A stretch of DNA of 64,000 nt from Vibrionaceae bacterium (GCA_018222805.1 JAAEZQ010000002.1:288415-352414), one strand, 5' to 3'. Shown: positions 3,153-58,984, counted from the stretch's first letter. Program-made: numbers and translations. The notes: generated by a model from the sequence alone, not told the origin.

Positions 3153-4953
3153 TGAGTTGCGCGCGCATGATGTGCAACTCAACCGTGAAAAAGCCCAACT
3201 CAATACCATGATGGGTGTCCTCAATTGTTACTTACGCGAGTTTGCGTTGCCAAATCAGCAAGTAGAATGGCAATACAACTCGACGTCATTACCGCAGACG
3301 TTAAAAAGAAACTACTCAGCAAAACAGCTCGTTGCCGTTCATCTATCCCAACAAAATAGCGTGCTAGTTTTACCGATTCACTACGTAAGTAAACTAGGCA
3401 AAATCAAGTTGGCGGGAATGCCATGGGTAAAAATGCCTGGCTCTGCTTGGACGAAGTTGAACTCTACGCAAACCCTCACGCTTTTGCTTAACTATCTCAA
3501 GCAAGTGTTGGCGATCCCGTTTAACCATGAGCTGATCGAACAGCTTGAAAATAGCGTGCTGGTTACGGAGCAGTTTCTCAACGTCGCGCCCAAATCGCAT
3601 CACAACGAATTTATCGCCTCGGAACAATCGCTGATTTGGGGTCATACTTTCCATCCGACACCGAAAAGTCGCTCAGGCGTCACAATGGATGATCTTTTGG
3701 CGTTCTCTCCGGAAGTCGGTGCGCAAGTCCCGTTGTTCTGGTTTGAAGTGGATTCGTCCTTACTTGATGTACTGAGTTCCGACAATGAATCTGGCTCTGC
3801 GCAGCACATGCTACAACAGCTCGCACCACATCATGCAGCCTGCAATGGGAAGATACTCTACCCTTGCCATCCTTGGGAAAGCTACACCATCTTAAGCAAC
3901 CCAAGCGTGAAACGAGCGATTGAACAAGGTCAGATCACTCCACTGGGATTAGGCGGAGAAAAGATGCAACCGACGTCTTCAGTTCGTACCCTCTACCACC
4001 CTGATATGGACTGGTTTGCTAAGTTCTCCATCAACGTACGATTAACCAACTGCGTGCGCAAAAACGCTTGGTACGAACTCGATAGTGCAGTGCAACTCAC
4101 ATCGATTCTCAAGCCGATTCGAGAGAACGAACAGCTGCGCAATCCGGTGTTTAAAGTGATGACCGAACCCTACGCCACCACATTGAACCTTGAAAGTGTG
4201 GCCGAGAGAAATTGGGACGACAACACCAAAGCCCGCGAGTCGTTCGGCATTTTGTACCGCGAAAACTTCTCGCTTAGCGAAGTCGATATCTTAAAGCCAA
4301 CCCTCGCCGGCGCTCTGTTTGCCTACGACAGAAACGGCAACAGCTGCATTGCTCAACACCTGACAAACAAAGCACGTACAACGCAAAGTCACTATCACGA
4401 CATCGCGACACTGTGGTTTGAACGCTATTTGCATTGCCTGATTCCGGGCGTGTTTAATTACTACTTCAAGCACGGAGTCGCGTTTGAGCCGCATTTGCAA
4501 AACACCTTGATTGGTTTTGAGCAAGAGATGCCTTGCTGCGTTTGGATTCGTGATTTGGAAGGCACCAAATTGCTGCCAGAATTTTGGCCAGAAGAGGCCT
4601 TAACCAACCTGTCTGAACGCGCGCGACAATCAGTCTACTACAGTCGCGAACAGGGCTGGAATCGCATCGGATACTGCACCTTTATCAACAATATCAGCGA
4701 GGCGATATTCTTCATCGCAGAAGGTGACGATCAACTAGAACAAACACTGTGGAATGCGGTGCAAAGTGCGATTGTGCGCTGGCAATCAGTAAATGGAAAA
4801 CAGCCGGAACTTGAAGCGTTACTTAATGGCGGTCACTTCCCAAGCAAAAACAATTTCACCACGCGTTTGATGCAAAAAGCCGATAAAGAGTCGGGTTACA
4901 CCCAAGTAGCCGCGCCTTGGCAACAAGGTGAAAAAGGAGCGCAACATGCCTAA
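3112..4953 (+). CDS. pvsD: IucA/IucC-family siderophore synthetase (PvsD-like)
   Basis: 613-aa ORF, paralogous in architecture to pvsB. The start may be the ATG at 3124, since the ORF overlaps the pvsC end. Confidence 0.75.
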   Translation: MEINMLQTQSSPTSELRAHDVQLNREKAQLNTMMGVLNCYLREFALPNQQVEWQYNSTSLPQTLKRNYSAKQLVAVHLSQQNSVLVLPIHYVSKLGKIKLAGMPWVKMPGSAWTKLNSTQTLTLLLNYLKQVLAIPFNHELIEQLENSVLVTEQFLNVAPKSHHNEFIASEQSLIWGHTFHPTPKSRSGVTMDDLLAFSPEVGAQVPLFWFEVDSSLLDVLSSDNESGSAQHMLQQLAPHHAACNGKILYPCHPWESYTILSNPSVKRAIEQGQITPLGLGGEKMQPTSSVRTLYHPDMDWFAKFSINVRLTNCVRKNAWYELDSAVQLTSILKPIRENEQLRNPVFKVMTEPYATTLNLESVAERNWDDNTKARESFGILYRENFSLSEVDILKPTLAGALFAYDRNGNSCIAQHLTNKARTTQSHYHDIATLWFERYLHCLIPGVFNYYFKHGVAFEPHLQNTLIGFEQEMPCCVWIRDLEGTKLLPEFWPEEALTNLSERARQSVYYSREQGWNRIGYCTFINNISEAIFFIAEGDDQLEQTLWNAVQSAIVRWQSVNGKQPELEALLNGGHFPSKNNFTTRLMQKADKESGYTQVAAPWQQGEKGAQHA

Positions 4954-26871: not shown

Positions 26872-29800
26872 TTATGCGTTTTCTGCTTGAGCAACTGTTC
26901 GTTGAGAAAAAGTTTGTTGAGTAAAGCGGTACAAGTAGTGAGGACCACCCGCTTTCGGGCCAGTACCAGACAAGCCTTGCCCACCGAATGGCTGAACACC
27001 AACTACGGCACCAACTTGATCTCGGTTGATGTAGCAGTTACCGACACGTACGTGCTTTTCAATCCAGCGATAAGTGGTTTCATTGCGGCTGTGGATACCC
27101 ATAGTCAGGCCAAAACCAGTTTGGTTAATCTGCTCAACAACGTTTGGCAACTCAGACGCTTTAAAGCGAACAATGTGCAGAATTGGACCAAATTGCTCTT
27201 CTTTCAGTACATCAATACCTGAGATTTCAAAGGCACTTGGTGATACAAAATCACCATGCTCACAAGCTTCATTCAACTGTAGCTCAGCAACTTTCTTTTG
27301 CGTTTTCGCCATGTGCGCAATGTGAGCCTGGAGTTTTTGTTTCGCATTTTGGTCAATAACCGGTCCAACATCGGTTTTATGTAAGTACGGCAAACCGACA
27401 TCTAACTCATTCATCGCACCCTGAATAAGGTTGATGATGCGATCTGCCACGTCTTCCTGTACGAATAGAACTCGTAGTGCTGAACAACGTTGACCAGCCG
27501 ATGCAAACGCAGATCGAATAACATCACGTACAACCTGCTCTGGCAGTGCCGTACTGTCGACGATCATGGCGTTCTGTCCGCCTGTTTCTGCAATAAACGG
27601 TACTGGCTTCGCCGTGCGCTCTGCCAATGTTACGTTGATACGCTGCGCCGTTGCTGTCGAACCCGTAAATGCCACACCAGCAATCGCATCGTGAGAAGTC
27701 AGTGCATGACCAATTTCACTACCGCGACCAGGAAGCAACTGAATAACACCAGCAGGGAAGCCAGCTTCCAGCATCAGTTCAATCGCACGAGCTGCAATTA
27801 AGCTGGTTTGCTCAGCAGGTTTCGCGACCACAGTGTTACCCGCAACAAGAGCCGCTGTTACCTGACCAAGGAAAATCGCCAGAGGGAAGTTCCATGGGCT
27901 GATACAAACAAACACTCCCAAACCTTCACGGCTCGAAATACGTTTAACGCCGTCAAAGCCTTCTAGCTCAAATGGTTGCAGGTTTTGTGCTTGTTTCGCG
28001 TAGTAACGGCAGAAATCGACTGCTTCACGAACTTCATCGATACTGTCATGAATAGTCTTACCTGCTTCTTTGTGACAAATTGCCACCAGCTCAGCTAGGT
28101 TTTCTTCCATTAAGTCAGCAAGCTTTTCTAAACACTGCGCTTTCTGCTCAATCGCTGTACCTTTCCACTCAGGGAAAGCGTTCTGCGCTGCTTGAATTGC
28201 AGAGGAAACATGATCAAGAGTAGCAAAAGCCACTTTACCTGCTTCGATACGACGATCGTATGGTGCAGTAACAATCTCTGCTGCGTTTTCCTTGATCATG
28301 CTTTCAGCGAAAGACTGACCATTGATCACAGGACCAGCAGTCCATGTATTGTTCAGGAAGCTTTCAACTTGAGTCTCAAATGGTTTAGCTTCACTTTCAA
28401 TATCAATGTTCACGCCGTAAGAGTTTTTACGCTCTGGGAAAATACCCGATGGCAATGGAATCTTGTCGTTATACAACGTCTCAAAACCAGTTAGCACATC
28501 GACAGGGTGATGCGTTAACTCGTAAATAGGACAACGAGCATCCACTAAACGGTGTACAAACGAGCTGTTCGCACCATTTTCTAACAGGCGACGAACCAGG
28601 TAAGGAAGCAAGTCTGCATGACTACCAACTGGTGCGTAAATACGTACAGGCTGACCGTATTTATCCATTACATGGTTGTAAAGTGAGTCGCCCATGCCGT
28701 GAAGGCGCTGGAACTCATAATCTTTGTGCTGCGCCATCACTGCAATTGCCGTCACAGTGTGTGCATTGTGGCTCGCAAACTGCGGGAAGATGTTGCCACG
28801 TACACCTTCACTCAATAGGAATCGAGCACAAGCTAGGTACGCAACGTCTGTCGCTTCTTTACGGGTGTAAACTGGGTAGTTGTCATAACCCGCTTGCTGC
28901 GACCATTTAATTTCACTGTCCCAGTAAGCGCCTTTAACCAGTCGTAATGGGATAAGATCGCCCTGCTCTTTCGCTAGCGCATTTATCCATACCAATACAG
29001 GAAGAGCACGCTTCGAGTACGCTTGAATAACAAGACCAAACTTGCCCCAGCCTTTCACTAGGTCGCTGCGGTACACTTTCTCAAATAGTTTTAAAGAAAG
29101 CTCAAGACGATCGGCTTCTTCTGCATCAATCGTAATCGCAACGTCTACTTCAATTGCACGTTTCAGCAGCTGCATTAACGAGTCGTACAACTCTGTCATT
29201 ACACGATCTTCGTTTGCAACTTCATAGCGTGGGTGCAGTGCAGATAGCTTAATAGAAATAGAAGGTGCAGGGCTGGTATCATTGCCGTAAGTCTCTCGAC
29301 CCACCGCTTCGATCGCCATTAGATAATCTTTAAAGTACTTATTCGCATCTGCGGTGGTCAGTGCCGCTTCACCCAACATATCGAATGAGTAAGTGAAACC
29401 TTTATCGCGCATCGGACGACCATTTTTTTGCGCTTCTTCAATTGTGCGGCCACGAACAAACTGATGACCCATGATCTTCATCGCCTGATACATGGCTTTA
29501 CGAATCACAGGTTCAGAGAATTTGTTCACCAGACGGTTTACAGCCTGACTTGGGCTCTGGCTGCCTTTTTCACCAAGACCAACCACTTTACCCGTCAGCA
29601 TAAGACCCCATGTTGACGCGTTAACGAAAACTGAGTCTGAGTTTTTCAGGTGAGATTTCCAGTCCGCAACACTGAGCTTGTCTTTGATCAACGCGTCTGC
29701 AGTCGCAGAATCAGGGATACGCATTAATGCTTCTGCAAGACACATCAACAAGATACCTTCTTGTGTATCTAAGCTGTATTCCAGCAGCAGGGCATCAATC

Positions 29801-30403: not shown

Positions 30404-31216
30404 TTACCCAACTTGTTTCTTATATTGGGAAGGCGATAATCCCTGCAAGCGAGTAAAAGTATGTGTGAACGTACTTTGGTTAGAGAAGCCAGTAAACTCT
30501 GCAATTTGACCAAGTGATAGCTGCCCTTGATTGATTAGCTCTCGCGCCATATCAATGCGTTTACCTAAAACATACTGATGAGGCGTAATCCCCATTTGCT
30601 CCTTAAACAGGCAGTGGAACTGACTTTCACCTAAAAACACTCGACCAGCAAGCTGAGCAACACTGATCTTGTGACTTAAATGCTGCTCGATATAACGATC
30701 GATCGCTTCCAGATCAAAACGGGATTCTTTGCGGCTGGTTTCAAAAGCGGAAATATGACGCTGCATCAATGCGATTACCGTATCGTTACAAGCGCGACTT
30801 AATAACAGATCTTCAGGGTGATTACGCATTTCCTGAACCAACATCTGTATTAACTTCTGAATTTGACCATCTAACTTAAAGTACAGGTGTGAACGCTCTA
30901 GATTATTGATTTTATTCAGCATTTCAGGATCATCATCCGTTGGTTTTGGCATATTAAGCACCAAAATGTCCGATTGATTAATCACCCCTCCGAAAGCATG
31001 ATCAGAGCAGGCGGTTACCACACACCCCTGACCCGGTCCAACGAGATTTCCCTGGCCACGCACTTCAAATTCAGCTTGCCCTTTCAACCCAATAACTATC
31101 TGAGTGTAAGAATGATCATGGCACTCCATATAAGATGGAAGTGTGATCAGTTCTGCAGGACGAGGCTGCATAATCTCTTTATATAGCGGGGCTTTCGGGT
31201 TATCTGAATCAGTCAT
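30404..31216 (-). CDS. AraC-family transcriptional regulator (cupin + HTH)
   Basis: 270 aa. C-terminal AraC HTH (GITPHQY, STFTHTFTRLQGLSPSQYKK) and an N-terminal cupin-like sensor. Sits upstream of putA on the same strand. Confidence 0.75.
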   Translation of the reverse strand: MTDSDNPKAPLYKEIMQPRPAELITLPSYMECHDHSYTQIVIGLKGQAEFEVRGQGNLVGPGQGCVVTACSDHAFGGVINQSDILVLNMPKPTDDDPEMLNKINNLERSHLYFKLDGQIQKLIQMLVQEMRNHPEDLLLSRACNDTVIALMQRHISAFETSRKESRFDLEAIDRYIEQHLSHKISVAQLAGRVFLGESQFHCLFKEQMGITPHQYVLGKRIDMARELINQGQLSLGQIAEFTGFSNQSTFTHTFTRLQGLSPSQYKKQVG

Positions 31217-31336
31217 TTCACACAGTCATCTTAAGCGTAAGGCTTACAATCACGCATGATATACCTTCTCGAGTAGCTTGCAAATCTTCAACGGATTAAT
31301 CGGACAAGATCAAATCAACATGATCAACCAAAACCA

Positions 31337-31366
31337 CATGATCATCGTTCCGGAACGATGATCATG
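31337..31366. repeat. Perfect 30-bp palindrome made of two back-to-back RctB-iteron-like 12-mers
   Basis: CATGATCATCGTTCC|GGAACGATGATCATG. Each arm contains ATGATCATCGTT, identical to the ori2 iteron at 54142-54153. It carries two GATC sites. Confidence 0.7.
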
Positions 31367-31544
31367 TTAGTTTAAACTACGGTTAACGCCAAACCAATTT
31401 TGATAATAAAAACGGATAGATAGCGAACACCATTGATTACAACCTCCACTATTAGTAAAGATCCTCACTTGTGATCGAAAGCATATTCAAACTCAACCTC
31501 CAGCGTGAAAAATAAACTACGATGATTCTATTCAATCATTGCAC

Positions 31545-31572
31545 TAGAGGGATTTCCCCCCTTACTTATATT
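31545..31572 (+). promoter_or_regulatory. Candidate vqmR promoter with VqmA-box-like palindrome
   Basis: TAGAGGGATTTCCCCCCT (31545-31562) resembles the GGGGGGATTTCCCCCC-type VqmA site recalled for V. cholerae PvqmR, with a degenerate left arm. TATATT at 31567-31572 is a candidate -10. Confidence 0.5.
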
Positions 31573-31579
31573 CCTTCGA

Positions 31580-31749
31580 TTCAATACATTAGTCTAAGAG
31601 CTTGAGGGTACATCCCCCTTTAGCCCTGGGTATCTCATTGATACCTCTAACTTACTTAGCAGGCCCTCGCTAAGTAAGTTGGAACCTCTTCTACAAGTCA
31701 ACAAGATAATATCTTGTGTTGCCAGCCCGTCTTCAGGCTGGCTTTTTTT
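31580..31749 (+). ncRNA. vqmR: Candidate VqmR small RNA
   Basis: No coding potential on the plus strand. Internal 10-bp hairpin CTTACTTAGC...GCTAAGTAAG. Strong terminator GCCAGCC...GGCTGGC plus T7 (31721-31749). Lies directly upstream of vqmA behind a VqmA-box-like palindrome. The 5' end is estimated only. Confidence 0.6.
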
Positions 31750-31872
31750 ATACATGAAAACAATAGCATAAGCTGATACCATATTGACCACCTAACTGTA
31801 TCCTCGCGTCAACTATCATTCTGAGTAATCTTAATCACGCCAACTTCAACGCCAATAAGCAATAGCGAAACG

Positions 31873-31893
31873 ACGAAAGCATGATCAAGGAAA
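31873..31893 (+). repeat. 21-nt exact copy of an inc-region RctB iteron plus flank
   Basis: ACGAAAGCATGATCAAGGAAA is identical to 53696-53716. It lies between the vqmR terminator and the vqmA start. Confidence 0.75.
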
Positions 31894-31962: not shown

Positions 31963-32694
31963 GTGAGCCCTTTTGTGAATATCCCAGTCAATAGCATAGA
32001 ACAGTCGCTCCTTCGACAACTCCCCGGTTGTTGGGGATGTAAAGATAAAGATTCAGTGTTCCGTTACGTTAATCAGGAGTATGCCGAACTACTCGGTCAC
32101 ACCAGCCCCGAACATTGTATTGGTAAGACTGACTTCGACATGCCAAGTCCAACCACTGAGTGTGCGAAAGAGTTTCAACGTCAGGATCAGTATGTTCTAG
32201 AAACTGGTGAGCCGTTGAAAATCCTTGATATTCATCCTTACCCTGATGGACGCTGGCGTGCTCATATTTTCACTAAAACACCTTGGCGAGATGAACATGG
32301 AAATACTCTGGGTACCATCTTTTACGGACGAGAACTGACAGACACCGCTGTCATCGAGGTTGGTTACTGGGTTTGCCGAGCTGTCGACACTGATCCCAAT
32401 CAGCAATCTATCTTTCGTTTCTCGAATCTGAACGCCAAGCCAGTGAAATTAACCAACCGTGAGCAAGAAACGCTTTTCTTGTTACTTTACGGGAAGAAAC
32501 CACAGTTCATTTCACAAGTGATGGGAATTTCGACCAAAACGGTCGAAGGTCACGTCGCTCGCTTGCGGAACAAGTTTGAGGCGAACAGCAAAAACGAGTT
32601 GATTGATAAAGCGATGGAGGCAGGATACGGATCTCTGGTGCCGAAGACGTTACTCAAACATCAACTTTCTGTCGTTCTTAATGGTGACAGATAA
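31963..32694 (+). CDS. vqmA: PAS-LuxR-type quorum-sensing receptor/transcription factor VqmA
   Basis: 243 aa. LRQLPGCWGCKD, IHPYPDGRWRAHIFTKTPWRD, LLLYGKKPQ and PKTLLKHQLSVVL match my recollection of V. cholerae VqmA. GTG start at 31963. C-terminal LuxR HTH. Confidence 0.75.
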   Translation: MSPFVNIPVNSIEQSLLRQLPGCWGCKDKDSVFRYVNQEYAELLGHTSPEHCIGKTDFDMPSPTTECAKEFQRQDQYVLETGEPLKILDIHPYPDGRWRAHIFTKTPWRDEHGNTLGTIFYGRELTDTAVIEVGYWVCRAVDTDPNQQSIFRFSNLNAKPVKLTNREQETLFLLLYGKKPQFISQVMGISTKTVEGHVARLRNKFEANSKNELIDKAMEAGYGSLVPKTLLKHQLSVVLNGDR

Positions 32695-53480: not shown

Positions 53481-53594
53481 TAAATTTTATACGGAACGAT
53501 TATATTGGCCAGCTAAATTACGGATTATGTAAAATCAATACTCCCATACCTCAAAATAGATAAACTCAAGAAAGTATCTTCCACGGATAATGAC

Positions 53595-54051
53595 TTGATC
53601 ATGCATCCGAAGCAATAAATGTAGATATTGAATAAACAACCCGGAAAAATGATCAAGGTACTATCTTGATCATTTTTCCGAGACATAACCAAAAAACGAA
53701 AGCATGATCAAGGAAAAGTAGGGCAGAGCTTGAGTAAACAGACGTTCTGGTAAGCGATCAAACTAACGGAAAAATGATCAAGTGAACAAGTTTCTCGGAA
53801 GCATGCTTTTTATCCGCTACTTTACGGCTGAATGCAGACACACTGGGGCATTCAGAGAAAAAGGCTCAGAACGATGAAATGAAAACCATGAATTTGACAA
53901 GTTCTACTATCATGATCATGCTTCCTAAATTTTGGTAAGATACAGTTTTTACAGGGCTAAGATTGAATTCTGATGATATTTTCAACACATGAATGATTTA
54001 TCACCAAAATTAGACTTCAATCGGACATTGTTATTATGCTTGATCATCGAT
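53595..54051. repeat. inc-region RctB iteron-like 12-mers (dispersed, both orientations)
   Basis: TTGATCATGCAT 53595-53606; ATGATCAAGGAA 53704-53715; ATGATCAAGTGA 53774-53785; ATGATCATGCTT 53912-53923; TTGATCATCGAT 54040-54051. Confidence 0.7.
53642..53680. repeat. 39-bp inverted repeat of two convergent iteron-like arms (candidate 39-mer-class RctB site)
   Basis: CGGAAAAATGATCAAG-gtactat-CTTGATCATTTTTCCG. The left arm recurs at 53767-53782. Equivalence to V. cholerae 39-mers is uncertain, because I recall those lacking GATC. Confidence 0.5.
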
Positions 54052-54118
54052 CCGGAACTAAATACTTAATAAAATCCACTTTAGTTACACCTTAGTCGAT
54101 CAATCAATCAATCATTTC

Positions 54119-54127
54119 TGTGGATAA
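54119..54127 (-). promoter_or_regulatory. DnaA box (perfect TTATCCACA on the minus strand)
   Basis: TGTGGATAA lies 14 nt before the first of the six phased iterons. Confidence 0.8.
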
Positions 54128-54141
54128 CCTGTACAAACATC

Positions 54142-54267
54142 ATGATCATCGTTTCAAGAACATTTTGATCATCTTTTCATAAACTTAATGATCATGCTTG
54201 CGGGTGAATATGATCATGTTTTCAGGTTTTTGTTGATCATCGTTTCAGGAGTATTATGATCATAGTT
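54142..54267 (+). repeat. Six phased RctB 12-mer iterons of ori2-min
   Basis: Starts at 54142, 54165, 54188, 54210, 54233 and 54256, with spacing 23, 23, 22, 23, 23 bp. Sequences: ATGATCATCGTT, TTGATCATCTTT, ATGATCATGCTT, ATGATCATGTTT, TTGATCATCGTT, ATGATCATAGTT. All share one orientation. Confidence 0.9.
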
Positions 54268-54474
54268 CCGAAATTCATGAAAATAATAGTCTTATATAAC
54301 AAAAGCTTAGAAACAAATCGAAAGCCAGATCATTAGATCATATAATCAATTAAGATCATAATAATCAAAAAGATCAGTTATTTAAAAAACAAGATTTTTT
54401 CTTTATTTATGATCTGTTTTTCTTTATTCTTCGGAACCATAGCACAACTACGGCTAGTGTGATCTGGATCTAAA
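54268..54474. promoter_or_regulatory. AT-rich, GATC-dense tract (candidate unwinding element) plus rctB promoter/leader
   Basis: Seven further GATC sites at 54328, 54336, 54354, 54372, 54411, 54461 and 54467. Long A/T runs. Directly upstream of the rctB ATG. Confidence 0.65.
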
Positions 54475-56445
54475 ATGACGGCTGATGAAAAAATTCTGAT
54501 TAAAGCACCGAGAAGCCACAAAGATGGACATCTTTTTGAAGTGCACGAATCTTCTGCAGATTGGGTAGAACAATACCAACACTTCAAAGGAGTGACCAAA
54601 AGCATCTTAGAATTGCTTAATCTTATCTCCTTGAGAGGTTTCAGCAGCAAAGATGGGCTTGTATCAACCACTGAAATTGTTGAAGCCACAGATGGTCAAT
54701 TGACTCGTGCGGCACTTCAACAACGCTTGAGAGCAGCAGTGAACATTGGTTTATTTACTCAAACTCCGGTTCGTTTTGAAGAAGGACTCGCCGGAAAAAC
54801 CATGTTACATAAATTTGTTAACCCCAATAAGCTGATTTCCGTTTTGGGTGCAACAAGCTTAGTTACTGAAAAAGTTCGTCAAAATGAAAAGCAAAAACGT
54901 TCAAAAGCATTAGCCCAAACACAAGTAAACAAACGACTGTTGACGGAACATGGCTTAAATACACCACCGACGATGAAGGATGAAGCAGATCAATTTGTCG
55001 TTTCTCCAACTAATTGGGCAGGGATCATCGATCAGGCACTTGCGCCTCCTCGTACCCGTAAAAGTTATCAGAAGTCCATGGTGTCAATTTCTGGTACCAA
55101 AGCGGTCATTGAGACACGATCATCCAAAAATATCATGACCGTGGATGATCTGATGACATTGTTTGCTCTGTTCACATTAACCGTGCAATATCATGATCAT
55201 CATAAAGATCAGTATCAACTCGACGCAGCCCACGTACCGAACAAAACGCCGTTATACATTACCGATATTTTGTCGCTAAGAGGCAAAAAAGACAGCGGTC
55301 CAGCACGTGACTCTATTCGTGACAGCATTGATCGTATTGAGTTTACCGATTTCCAATTGCATGAATTAACCGGCCGTTGGTTGAGTGAAAATATGCCGGA
55401 AGGTTTCAAAAGTGATCGATTCCGATTTCTTGCTCGAACGATTACCGCATCGGAAGAAGCGCCGGTTGAGGGCAGTGACGGTGAAATTCGGATCAAACCC
55501 AATTTGTATATATTAGTTTGGGAGCCATCGTTTTATGAAGAGTTGCTCACTCGTGATTACTTCTTCCTCTTTCCACCGGAGATTCTGAAACAGCATACTT
55601 TAGTGTTCCAGTTGTATTCGTTTTTCCGTAGTCGTATGGTTCGTCGCCACACAGATTGCATGTTGCTTAGTGAACTGAACCAGAAGTTAGCGCGCAACAT
55701 AGAATGGCGACGATTTTCCATGGATCTTATTCGCGAGTTGAAACGATTATCTGACGGTAAAGGAACGGACGATCTGTTTGTTGTGAATTTGTGGGGTTAT
55801 CACCTAACGATCGAAATGATGATCGAGAATGACAAAGTGATGGATTACCAGATCGATATAAAATGTGATGTGGAAGAAGTCTTGCGTTACTCACGTGCGC
55901 GAACAACGAACGCTGGAAAGCGTAACATGGCACCTACGCTGCCAAACCCACTTCGCAATGAGATGGTAACCCGACAACAGCTTGAAGAGCTCTCAGGCAT
56001 CATTGACGGCGAATTTGAGCCTATCCAGCGCAAAGCACCATCCCCAAGAGGGAATTTAGGCCGTCGCGTGAAGCAAAGAAAACATCTTGTTGAGATCAAT
56101 GCTGATGAGATAACCATTACTCTATCTAAATATACCTCACCAGAGGCTCTGGAACGCAGTATAACGGCTTTATCAGCAATGACAGGGCACTCGTATGCCT
56201 CAATTAAAGAAGAGTGCTCAGAGTACATTGAGAAGCTTGATTGGCTGAGGGTAGGAGATGAGCCAGTGCCATATGAGACATTAAGCAAAACCGTTGAGCT
56301 GTTCAACACGCAAAATGACCTCAAGCATCTTACCATTGAACGCTTGATTGCTGGCTTAGCTGTTCGTCGTAAGGTCTGTAGACAAATCTACGATGGTCAT
56401 ATAGATGAGATGGTATACCGAGCACTTGATGAGATGGCCATTTAA
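54475..56445 (+). CDS. rctB: Chromosome II replication initiator RctB
   Basis: 656 aa, next to ori2 iterons and divergent from parA2B2. Size and position match V. cholerae RctB (about 658 aa). Confidence 0.9.
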   Translation: MTADEKILIKAPRSHKDGHLFEVHESSADWVEQYQHFKGVTKSILELLNLISLRGFSSKDGLVSTTEIVEATDGQLTRAALQQRLRAAVNIGLFTQTPVRFEEGLAGKTMLHKFVNPNKLISVLGATSLVTEKVRQNEKQKRSKALAQTQVNKRLLTEHGLNTPPTMKDEADQFVVSPTNWAGIIDQALAPPRTRKSYQKSMVSISGTKAVIETRSSKNIMTVDDLMTLFALFTLTVQYHDHHKDQYQLDAAHVPNKTPLYITDILSLRGKKDSGPARDSIRDSIDRIEFTDFQLHELTGRWLSENMPEGFKSDRFRFLARTITASEEAPVEGSDGEIRIKPNLYILVWEPSFYEELLTRDYFFLFPPEILKQHTLVFQLYSFFRSRMVRRHTDCMLLSELNQKLARNIEWRRFSMDLIRELKRLSDGKGTDDLFVVNLWGYHLTIEMMIENDKVMDYQIDIKCDVEEVLRYSRARTTNAGKRNMAPTLPNPLRNEMVTRQQLEELSGIIDGEFEPIQRKAPSPRGNLGRRVKQRKHLVEINADEITITLSKYTSPEALERSITALSAMTGHSYASIKEECSEYIEKLDWLRVGDEPVPYETLSKTVELFNTQNDLKHLTIERLIAGLAVRRKVCRQIYDGHIDEMVYRALDEMAI

Positions 56446-56715: not shown

Positions 56716-56762
56716 GTGGATCATTTTTCCTAACTAATGAGGTAAACCTTGATCATGCTTCC
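56716..56762 (-). repeat. Two iteron-like sites downstream of rctB
   Basis: Minus-strand GGAAAAATGATCCAC (56716-56730) shares 12 nt with the 39-bp element arm. Minus-strand GGAAGCATGATCAAG (56748-56762) matches inc iteron 53700-53714 at 14 of 15 positions. Confidence 0.55.
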
Positions 56763-57201
56763 TAGTTTCATTCCAATTTAAAGATCGCATCAAAGCCACA
56801 TGTGACTCGATCAAGTTATGGGCTTGTTGTTGCCACTCACTTTGATCGCACTGCTGATTACAAAACTCTAAAGCGAGCACTGTGAGGTTCTGCAAACGTT
56901 TCAAACACCAGTCTTTAATCAGAATATCGGTTGATACCTGACACGCGGCTTGTTCCAGTTTTGCACTTGTGTAGAGCAAGGTTTGATAGGCTTTTTGATG
57001 GTCATGATACCTGGCGTGTTGGAACACTCGTAAACAACCGTCTAGCCAGCAAGCAATCGCTTTGCTTTGCGACTCGCTCAGTTCTGGCCCAAATACGTCA
57101 CTTGGAGCTTGATATAAGATCGATTCCAACTTTTCAACTTGATCATGCTTCCGATATTCATACCACATCGAGATCTGATCTTGCCAGGTACTCAATTCCA
57201 T
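56734..57201 (-). CDS. Hypothetical 155-aa helical protein, translationally coupled to the ABC ATPase gene upstream
   Basis: Its start ATG overlaps the preceding TAA (TAATG). No family recognised. It contains two RKHDQ pentapeptides encoded by iteron-like DNA. Confidence 0.5.
   Translation of the reverse strand: MELSTWQDQISMWYEYRKHDQVEKLESILYQAPSDVFGPELSESQSKAIACWLDGCLRVFQHARYHDHQKAYQTLLYTSAKLEQAACQVSTDILIKDWCLKRLQNLTVLALEFCNQQCDQSEWQQQAHNLIESHVALMRSLNWNETRKHDQGLPH
57139..57153 (-). repeat. Iteron-like site inside the 155-aa ORF
   Basis: CTTGATCATGCTTCC is an identical 15-mer to 56748-56762. Confidence 0.55.
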
Positions 57202-58135: not shown

Positions 58136-58984
58136 TTAGGCTCCTTGTGTCTCAGGTTGCTTGTGGACGTCGTGAATGTTTGGGAAAGAAGCCCATAGCT
58201 TTTGCGTATACGGATGTTGAGGGTGATTGCGAATTTGGTATGCTTGATTGACTTCGACAATTTCTCCGTGGCGCATGATGGCTATTCTGTCGCACAATTG
58301 GCTCATCAGCGCCAAGTCATGCGTGATGAAGAGTACCGAAAACCCAAACTCATCTCTAAGCTGATAGATTTGCTGTAAAATTTCTCTCTGTACAACGACA
58401 TCTAAAGCCGTTGTTGGTTCGTCCATAATGATAAGTTTTGGATTGAGAGACAGAGCGATGGCTATCACCAAACGCTGACGCATCCCACCAGAAAATTGAT
58501 GTGGGTATTCGCTTAACCGCTCTCGAGGGATATTGACCAAGTCCATCAATTTCTCTGCTCGATCCTTCGCTTGAGCATTGGTTAAGCCTTGGTGATAACA
58601 CAATACATCGGCAAATTGCTCTTGAATCGTTAAGACAGGGTTGAGTGAGTTCATCGCGCTTTGAAAAACCATCGCGATTTCACTCCATCGTAGAGCCGTC
58701 AGCTCAGAATCCGAGAGGCTAAGGATATCTTTTCCCTCAAACAGTATTTTGCCGCCAGAAATGAACGCTGGCGGCTTATGGAGACGATTTATCGAGAACG
58801 CGATCGTGCTTTTCCCGCACCCTGACTCGCCTGCAAGACCAAATACCTCCCCTTTGCCGATATCAAAACTGACGGATTTCACTGCTTTAAAATCACCATT
58901 ATCAGTGATGTAATCGACACACAAATCTCTGATCTGGATGACCGGATCATTGTGGTATGCATGATTTAAGTTAATACCACTCAT
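58136..58984 (-). CDS. Peptide/nickel-type ABC transporter ATP-binding protein (DppD/OppD-like)
   Basis: Walker A GESGCGKST, signature FSGGMRQRL, C-terminal QHPYTQ. Confidence 0.85.
   Translation of the reverse strand: MSGINLNHAYHNDPVIQIRDLCVDYITDNGDFKAVKSVSFDIGKGEVFGLAGESGCGKSTIAFSINRLHKPPAFISGGKILFEGKDILSLSDSELTALRWSEIAMVFQSAMNSLNPVLTIQEQFADVLCYHQGLTNAQAKDRAEKLMDLVNIPRERLSEYPHQFSGGMRQRLVIAIALSLNPKLIIMDEPTTALDVVVQREILQQIYQLRDEFGFSVLFITHDLALMSQLCDRIAIMRHGEIVEVNQAYQIRNHPQHPYTQKLWASFPNIHDVHKQPETQGA

Follow-up and report, generated by a model that had tools for sequence, protein, structure and literature searches.

The iteron cluster around the AraC-family regulator gene of this Harveyi-clade Vibrio is very probably, by orthology to V. 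cholerae, its copy of the external RctB locus, which should act as an origin-proximal RctB sink and as an inhibitor of ori2. The cluster is made up of two iterons within putA, one within the AraC-family gene, an inverted pair, one iteron between vqmR and vqmA, and one 39-mer-type site. A first-pass annotation of this DNA had proposed a remote locus for RctB binding, titration or handcuffing, and that proposal is well supported, since the sites match the genome's own iterons and have V. cholerae orthologs to which RctB binds and which depress ori2 replication (PMC3937223, PMC11711613). The locus is not new: it is already published as a 'datA-like' external RctB locus, and because it has been mapped and tested in V. 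cholerae the finding is a rediscovery.

The window, i.e. the whole stretch of 64,000 nucleotides that was analysed, is a piece of Vibrio chromosome 2 with rctB located at 54475-56445. The product of rctB was identified by comparison with the PDB entries 5UBF, 5UBE and 8RV3 (E = 3e-205 to 2e-61); NCBIfam left RctB without a match and the AraC-family regulator without a specific name. Among species representatives, Vibrio sp. EA2 (95%) and J1-1 (93%) are the closest, and both belong to the Harveyi clade. The distance of the locus to the ori2-min iterons, in the same window and on the same replicon, is 22.8 kb, and the palindrome discussed below is found in the divergent spacer with the AraC-family gene (minus strand) on one side and vqmR on the other (Table 1).

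Table 1. Putative RctB sites, neighbouring genes and ori2 elements in the window.
Feature	Position	Strand	Remarks
Iteron within putA	28202-28217	-	Ortholog of V. cholerae chrII-5; 16.5 bits
Iteron within putA	28292-28307	+	Ortholog of V. cholerae chrII-6
AraC-family regulator gene	30404-31216	-	
Iteron-like site within AraC-family regulator gene	30990-31005	-	CTGATCATGCTTTCGG
Perfect 30-bp palindrome	31337-31366	.	CATGATCATCGTTCCGGAACGATGATCATG; two tail-to-tail inverted iterons
Left-arm iteron	31338-31353	+	ATGATCATCGTTCCGG
Right-arm iteron	31350-31365	-	Ortholog of V. cholerae chrII-9 (PMC3937223 Table S1)
Putative 39-mer-type RctB site	31351-31389	+	CGGAACGATGATCATGTTAGTTTAAACTACGGTTAACGC; right-arm iteron nested within; ortholog of V. 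cholerae chrII-10
VqmA box of vqmR	31547-31563		
vqmR sRNA gene	31602-31752	+	Rfam RF02834, 106.7 bits
Single iteron between vqmR terminator and vqmA	31873-31888	-	TTGATCATGCTTTCGT (minus-strand reading)
vqmA ORF	31963-32694		
Reference ori2 region	53492-54460	+	13 iterons, two 39-mers and a 29-mer, then rctB
ori2 39-mers	53492-53530 and 53796-53834		
ori2 iterons	53595-54271		n=13
ori2 29-mer	54432-54460		

Iteron matrices of 16 and 21 columns were built from the 13 ori2 iterons, which themselves score 20.1-23.1 and 21.3-27.2 bits, respectively, and the window was scanned with them. Outside ori2 the 16-column matrix gives 7 matches of at least 18 bits, and 300 Markov-1 simulations give a mean of 0.09 per window and a maximum of 2. 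The excess of matches outside ori2 is far beyond chance. Five of the seven matches are located at 28.3-31.9 kb, namely 28292(+), 30990(-), 31338(+), 31350(-) and 31873(-), and the remaining two just 3' of rctB. The latter, at 56749-56764 (+; TTGATCATGCTTCCTA, 20.8 bits) and 57139-57154 (+; TTGATCATGCTTCCGA, 23.8 bits), are both strong iteron matches, lie 0.3-0.7 kb 3' of the rctB stop within a minus-strand ORF (56734-57201), and may be further RctB sites on the other flank of the origin region. A string GGAAAG...ATACGG at 58183-58218 (+), which overlaps predicted ORFs, has the 36-nt span of the 39-mers, probably by chance.

The perfect palindrome of 30 bp at 31337-31366 was found again as annotated. 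The central CCGG is common to its two iterons, whose TGATCA hexamers have a spacing of 20 bp. With the 21-column matrix the score of each arm is 25.8 bits and with the 16-column matrix 23.1 bits, which is within the range of the true ori2 iterons. The similarities to ori2 reported for the arms were also reproduced: ATGATCATCGTT (31338-31349), which the other arm carries as its reverse complement, agrees with 54142-54153 at 12/12 positions and with 54233-54244 at 11/12, and 31341-31356 agrees with 54043-54058 at 15/16. A tail-to-tail fused pair is indeed absent from the window's own ori2, where the pair in the inc region (53641/53666) is head-to-head. By their match to the matrix, both the left arm and the vqmR-vqmA iteron (22.3 bits, 16-column matrix) are putative RctB sites. 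The coordinates annotated earlier hold, except that two are one base out; ATGATCAACCAA, for example, is located at 31320-31331 and not at 31319-31330. The two stretches described as weaker relatives of the iterons do not stand up in the comparison, the one at 31476-31490 being kept in no relative, and the one at 31320 having CGATCA, TGGTCA or nothing in place of TGATCA in 6 of the 12 relatives aligned. A GATC-containing AAGATCAAA (31306-31314), some 25 bp left of the palindrome, is kept across the Harveyi clade.

The right arm had been read as an RctB iteron, which it is, but a 39-mer-type site that overlaps it was overlooked. Positions 31351-31389 have the layout of a 39-mer: over about 39 bp they run from an initial CGGAA to a (T/C)TACGG near the 3' end at the fixed spacing, here CGGAAC...CTACGG with the right arm as its 5' end. 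From GGAA to five bases past TACGG the site measures 36 nt, the same as both ori2 39-mers (53492, 53796), to which it is identical at 25/38 and 20/38 positions, while those two are identical to each other at 23/38; compared to chrII-10 of V. cholerae the identity is 28/38. The CTACGG variant is also present in the 29-mer of this genome. By spacing, identity and orthology, 31351-31389 is a putative 39-mer-type RctB site, and in V. cholerae the site of this type is the dominant, methylation-independent determinant of RctB binding.

The V. cholerae sites are well described. The ChIP-chip data of Baek & Chattoraj 2014 (PMC3937223) contain RctB peaks on chrII outside ori2, where chrII-5 and chrII-6 are active iteron sites at 1024865-1024973, chrII-9/chrII-10 is an iteron nested in a 39-mer at 1027995-1028033 (CGGAACAATGATCAAGTGCACATAAATTACGGTCAATG), and chrII-11 is an active iteron at 1030750. 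All of chrII-5, -6, -9, -10 and -11 bind RctB in EMSA and lower the copy number of poriII. Binding of RctB to chrII-10 persists without methylation, and its inhibition is not relieved by extra RctB; a dependence of binding on methylation has been demonstrated for the V. cholerae sites chrII-5, -6 and -9 alone (PMC3937223). In V. cholerae oriII/terII falls when chrII-10 is present in extra copies and rises slightly, with no growth defect, when chrII-10 alone is deleted (PMC3937223). An iteron and a 39-mer on one fragment have been published as a more potent inhibitor. In the ChIP-seq of Niault et al. 2025 (PMC11711613, Supplementary Data 1) there is an iteron peak in CDS VCA1073 (putA) and a '39m' peak of 8.6x between VCA1074 and VCA1075, the strongest on Chr2 outside ori2, which persists without Dam (7.2x in a dam deletion) but not with RctB-L651P (1.5x). 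A 2018 review (PMC6090056) calls the locus comparable to E. coli datA, an analogy found also in Baek & Chattoraj 2014.

The iteron matches at the locus of V. cholerae ATCC 14035 (L028) are located at 1169(-), 1262(+), 4301(-) and 7062(+), and their spacings reproduce the published coordinates of chrII-5, -6, -9 and -11. At 4301, at the place equivalent to that of the composite site, there is TCGGAACAATGATCAAGTGCACATAAATTACGGTCAATG, the last 38 bases of which are identical to the published chrII-10. In the window, too, the sites lie within putA and just upstream of the adjacent AraC-family gene, on the ori2 replicon and tens of kb from the origin. The composite site shares with chrII-9/-10 this place, on the origin-proximal side of Chr2 and just upstream of the AraC-family gene that adjoins putA, the pattern CGGAAC-N-ATGATCA ... 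(T/C)TACGG over 39 bp, and a continuous series of intermediates across 76 Vibrionaceae loci. It differs by the second, inverted iteron that is fused to it and makes up the perfect 30-bp palindrome, and by its distance to ori2, 22.8 kb compared to about 40-44 kb in V. cholerae (PMC3937223); the V. cholerae sequence at the position of the left arm is unrelated, with a score of -9.8 bits.

The putA iteron pair shares its gene offset and orientations with the V. cholerae pair, and the 28292 site is located 1726 nt from the putA start, the same offset as in L028. The third-codon positions of the 28202 site are invariant with 2.0 bits in 11 sequences, i.e. the window and ten relatives, against 1.0 in the flanking codons, and the synonymous positions of the 28292 site carry 1.86 bits within the site against 1.0 outside. 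The 30990 site scores about 18 bits in most Harveyi and Splendidus loci, and its synonymous positions have 1.37 bits within against 0.66 outside (46 sequences). No equivalent of it was found in V. cholerae, and hence it is without a published counterpart. The TGATCA hexamer, including the Dam site GATC, is complete in all six sites (28202-, 28292+, 30990-, 31338+, 31350- and 31873-), and the arms and the 31873 site also have the flank pattern TGATCAT-NN-TT-Y-C of the genome's ori2 iterons.

The 21-nt ACGAAAGCATGATCAAGGAAA that the first-pass annotation had found both in ori2 (53696-53716) and between VqmR and the vqmA ORF (31873-31893) is identical at both places, as was claimed. Its core GAAAGCATGATCAAGG (31876-31891) is invariant in 11 aligned intergenic regions of the Harveyi clade (L001, L002, L004-L012) and missing in L013, and an iteron between vqmR and vqmA was found in L001-L012 and not outside the Harveyi clade. 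The 31873 site and chrII-11 have the extended sequence CCTTGATCATGCTTTCG in common, but chrII-11 is on the opposite strand and within a 605-aa ORF about 0.7 kb upstream of vqmR, while the site of the window is located between vqmR and vqmA. Strand and location rule out the 31873 site as a positional ortholog of chrII-11, and as place and strand differ the two are to be regarded as analogous. About 3.8 kb of extra genes (ORFs of 379 and 605 aa) separate the AraC-family gene from the vqmR side in L028 (4191-7744), and such genes are likewise present in L018, L019, L044, L048, L061, L071, L072 and L080; in the Harveyi clade only about 0.4 kb are found between the AraC-family gene and the vqmR side.

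Conservation was followed in 80 Vibrionaceae loci around vqmA, each about 16 kb and 1.28 Mb in total, and 22 VqmA homologs were aligned. The composite motif GGAA-NN-[AG]TGATCA-N13-16-TACGG, searched on both strands of the 1.28 Mb, is located at most 450 bp upstream of the AraC-family gene in 76/76 loci holding that gene, in Vibrio as well as Photobacterium, and there are no occurrences elsewhere in these loci on either strand. Iteron matches of at least 18 bits number 329 in the 487 kb of the putA-to-vqmA intervals, compared to 1 in 614 kb downstream of vqmA. In an alignment of the intergenic DNA from the AraC-family gene to vqmA (the window and 12 relatives, L001, L002 and L004-L013) the main conserved islands are the double iteron with the 39-mer, the VqmA box with vqmR, a post-terminator block, and the 16-nt iteron core, so that the RctB-type sites are invariant islands amid diverged intergenic DNA; short patches near the start of the AraC-family gene are likewise conserved. 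The frozen synonymous sites in the coding iterons together with these intergenic islands indicate that the DNA motifs themselves are under selection, and the motifs of the cluster are under purifying selection. In three Photobacterium loci (L047 5791-6208, L060 4675-5031 and L066 6974-7434) a series of 3-5 direct iterons, spaced mostly 41-48 bp apart, comes about 190-250 bp after the composite site, an array much larger than that of any Vibrio locus.

These data bear on the idea that the sites are chance matches, or functionless remnants of an ancient ori2/inc duplication. The exact identity over 21 nt between 31873-31893 and 53696-53716 is what such a duplication might leave behind, but the motifs alone are shared with ori2 and the surrounding sequence is not, seven matches stand against 0.09 expected, the motifs are kept across Vibrio and Photobacterium where the flanks have diverged, and synonymous sites are frozen in the coding-region copies. 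A relic or chance origin is contradicted already by the conservation data and is extremely unlikely.

A different dimeric transcription factor, such as a regulator of the divergent AraC-family gene, could also use the palindrome as its operator, with the likeness to iterons being incidental. In favour of an operator, the 15+15 inverted repeat is perfect, the region is a divergent promoter region, and the repeat precedes a candidate -35 of the AraC-family gene by about 55 bp. The left arm, however, is present in 31/76 loci, those of the Harveyi clade, L013, L041 and the Splendidus clade, and was not found in the Cholerae, Anguillarum and Coralliilyticus groups or in Photobacterium among the 76 loci compared. 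Even among the loci that have it, only the window, L001 and L005 show a palindrome free of mismatches, the other Harveyi species having one mismatch. The right arm and (T/C)TACGG at the fixed 39-mer spacing are always kept, and since the 45/76 loci without a left arm retain the right arm and the TACGG element, the palindrome is not the conserved unit. In addition, the match of the arms to the iterons of this genome extends over 16 positions and the V. cholerae ortholog binds purified RctB (PMC3937223), all of which makes an unrelated operator very unlikely. That the palindrome should be an intrinsic terminator on the minus strand, or a cruciform-forming structural element, is scarcely credible. 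The terminator scan does flag a 14-bp stem at 31367-31336 followed by GGTTTTGGTT, but there is no minus-strand gene ending upstream, the stem is AT-rich with 5/14 pairs GC, the T tract is poor and broken, and no hairpin can form in the 45/76 loci that have no left arm and still keep the right half and the 39-mer tail. An intrinsic terminator was rejected on these comparative grounds.

The first-pass annotation had further suggested a coupling of replication control to quorum sensing, in which RctB bound to the vqmR-vqmA iteron or to the palindrome would modulate transcription of vqmA or vqmR in a manner dependent on the cell cycle or on methylation. Sites said to bracket vqmR-vqmA in fact flank vqmR alone, as follows from the positions of vqmR (31602-31752) and the vqmA ORF (31963-32694). 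The palindrome is located about 180 bp upstream of the promoter box of vqmR. Consistent with a coupling, the 16-nt core at 31876-31891 is invariant in the 11 aligned relatives of the Harveyi clade amid a diverged spacer, the iteron has a near-constant distance downstream of a conserved block (31752-31782) that might be the vqmA promoter, and RctB is able to repress its own promoter via the 29-mer (PMC6090056). Against it, the vqmR-vqmA iteron is absent outside the Harveyi clade, the nearest V. cholerae iteron being in an ORF about 0.7 kb upstream of vqmR; the composite site is about 3-4 kb from vqmR in most clades and tracks the AraC-family gene and putA side instead; and the iteron is anywhere from 89 to 279 bp away from the start of vqmA. 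At the only two foreign promoters with published tests RctB gives minimal or no regulation (PMC11711613, section 6), and it was concluded by the authors that RctB seems to regulate its own transcription only (PMC11711613). With the composite site anchored to putA and the AraC-family gene, and the vqmR-vqmA iteron limited to the Harveyi clade, the coupling is unsupported and must be considered decidedly unlikely. The block itself, AATGAAAACAATrGCATAAGCTGATA (31752-31782), directly follows the vqmR terminator, is kept across the Harveyi clade and may be the vqmA promoter, with the iteron about 90-110 bp downstream.

As an external RctB locus, the region would be expected to work as follows. The Dam-methylated iterons would bind and titrate RctB, and the 39-mer part would bind RctB without methylation and inhibit ori2, whether by titrating RctB or by pairing with the origin iterons through an RctB bridge (handcuffing). 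Because the locus is only 22.8 kb from ori2 it should be copied soon after firing, so that the sink for RctB would be doubled and re-initiation hindered, a role like that of datA. The second, inverted iteron would be an extra RctB site on the same DNA face, 20 bp away, and should make the composite a stronger inhibitor, which agrees with the published potency of fragments that combine an iteron with a 39-mer.

Deletion of chrII-10 alone in V. cholerae had no growth phenotype and shifted the marker ratio only slightly (PMC3937223), so that the importance of the locus to the cell is uncertain. On the conservation of the locus only Baek & Chattoraj 2014 and reviews repeating that paper were found in the literature. 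As far as that literature was searched, the universal composite site in 76/76 Vibrionaceae loci, the selection on synonymous sites within the putA iterons, and the clade-specific architectures (the palindromic double iteron and the Photobacterium iteron arrays) go beyond what is in print, and they indicate that the locus matters more than the mild deletion phenotype in V. cholerae suggests. A bolder reading is that the external locus is not a redundant sink but an ancient, family-wide core of Chr2 control, fixed by putA and the AraC-family gene before the split of Vibrio and Photobacterium and later elaborated by lineage, with the inverted pair and 39-mer in Harveyi and Splendidus, 3-5 direct iterons in Photobacterium, and in Harveyi an iteron in the vqmA leader that would make vqmA sensitive to RctB occupancy or to methylation after the fork has passed; we regard this as unlikely. 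The residual value of the finding lies in the family-wide conservation and the clade-specific elaborations of what is a modest architectural variant of a characterised locus, and the clade variants are natural material on how combinations of iterons and 39-mers tune ori2.

Besides the V. cholerae sites, two known systems come close to the external RctB locus described here. The first, crtS, is an RctB site on Chr1 that triggers ori2 and enhances initiation, and has no similarity to iterons or 39-mers. Like crtS, the present locus would be a remote RctB-binding site that modulates ori2, but it is on Chr2, the same replicon as rctB and ori2, it consists of iterons and a 39-mer, and its V. cholerae ortholog inhibits initiation; replicon and motifs set it apart from crtS as that site is described. 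With E. coli datA the locus shares the character of an origin-proximal cluster of initiator sites that is duplicated early and is negative on initiation. The initiator is DnaA in E. coli and RctB, a plasmid-type iteron binder, here. Unlike for datA, we know of no nucleotide-hydrolysis mechanism for the RctB locus, and part of its action may instead be handcuffing via the 39-mer.
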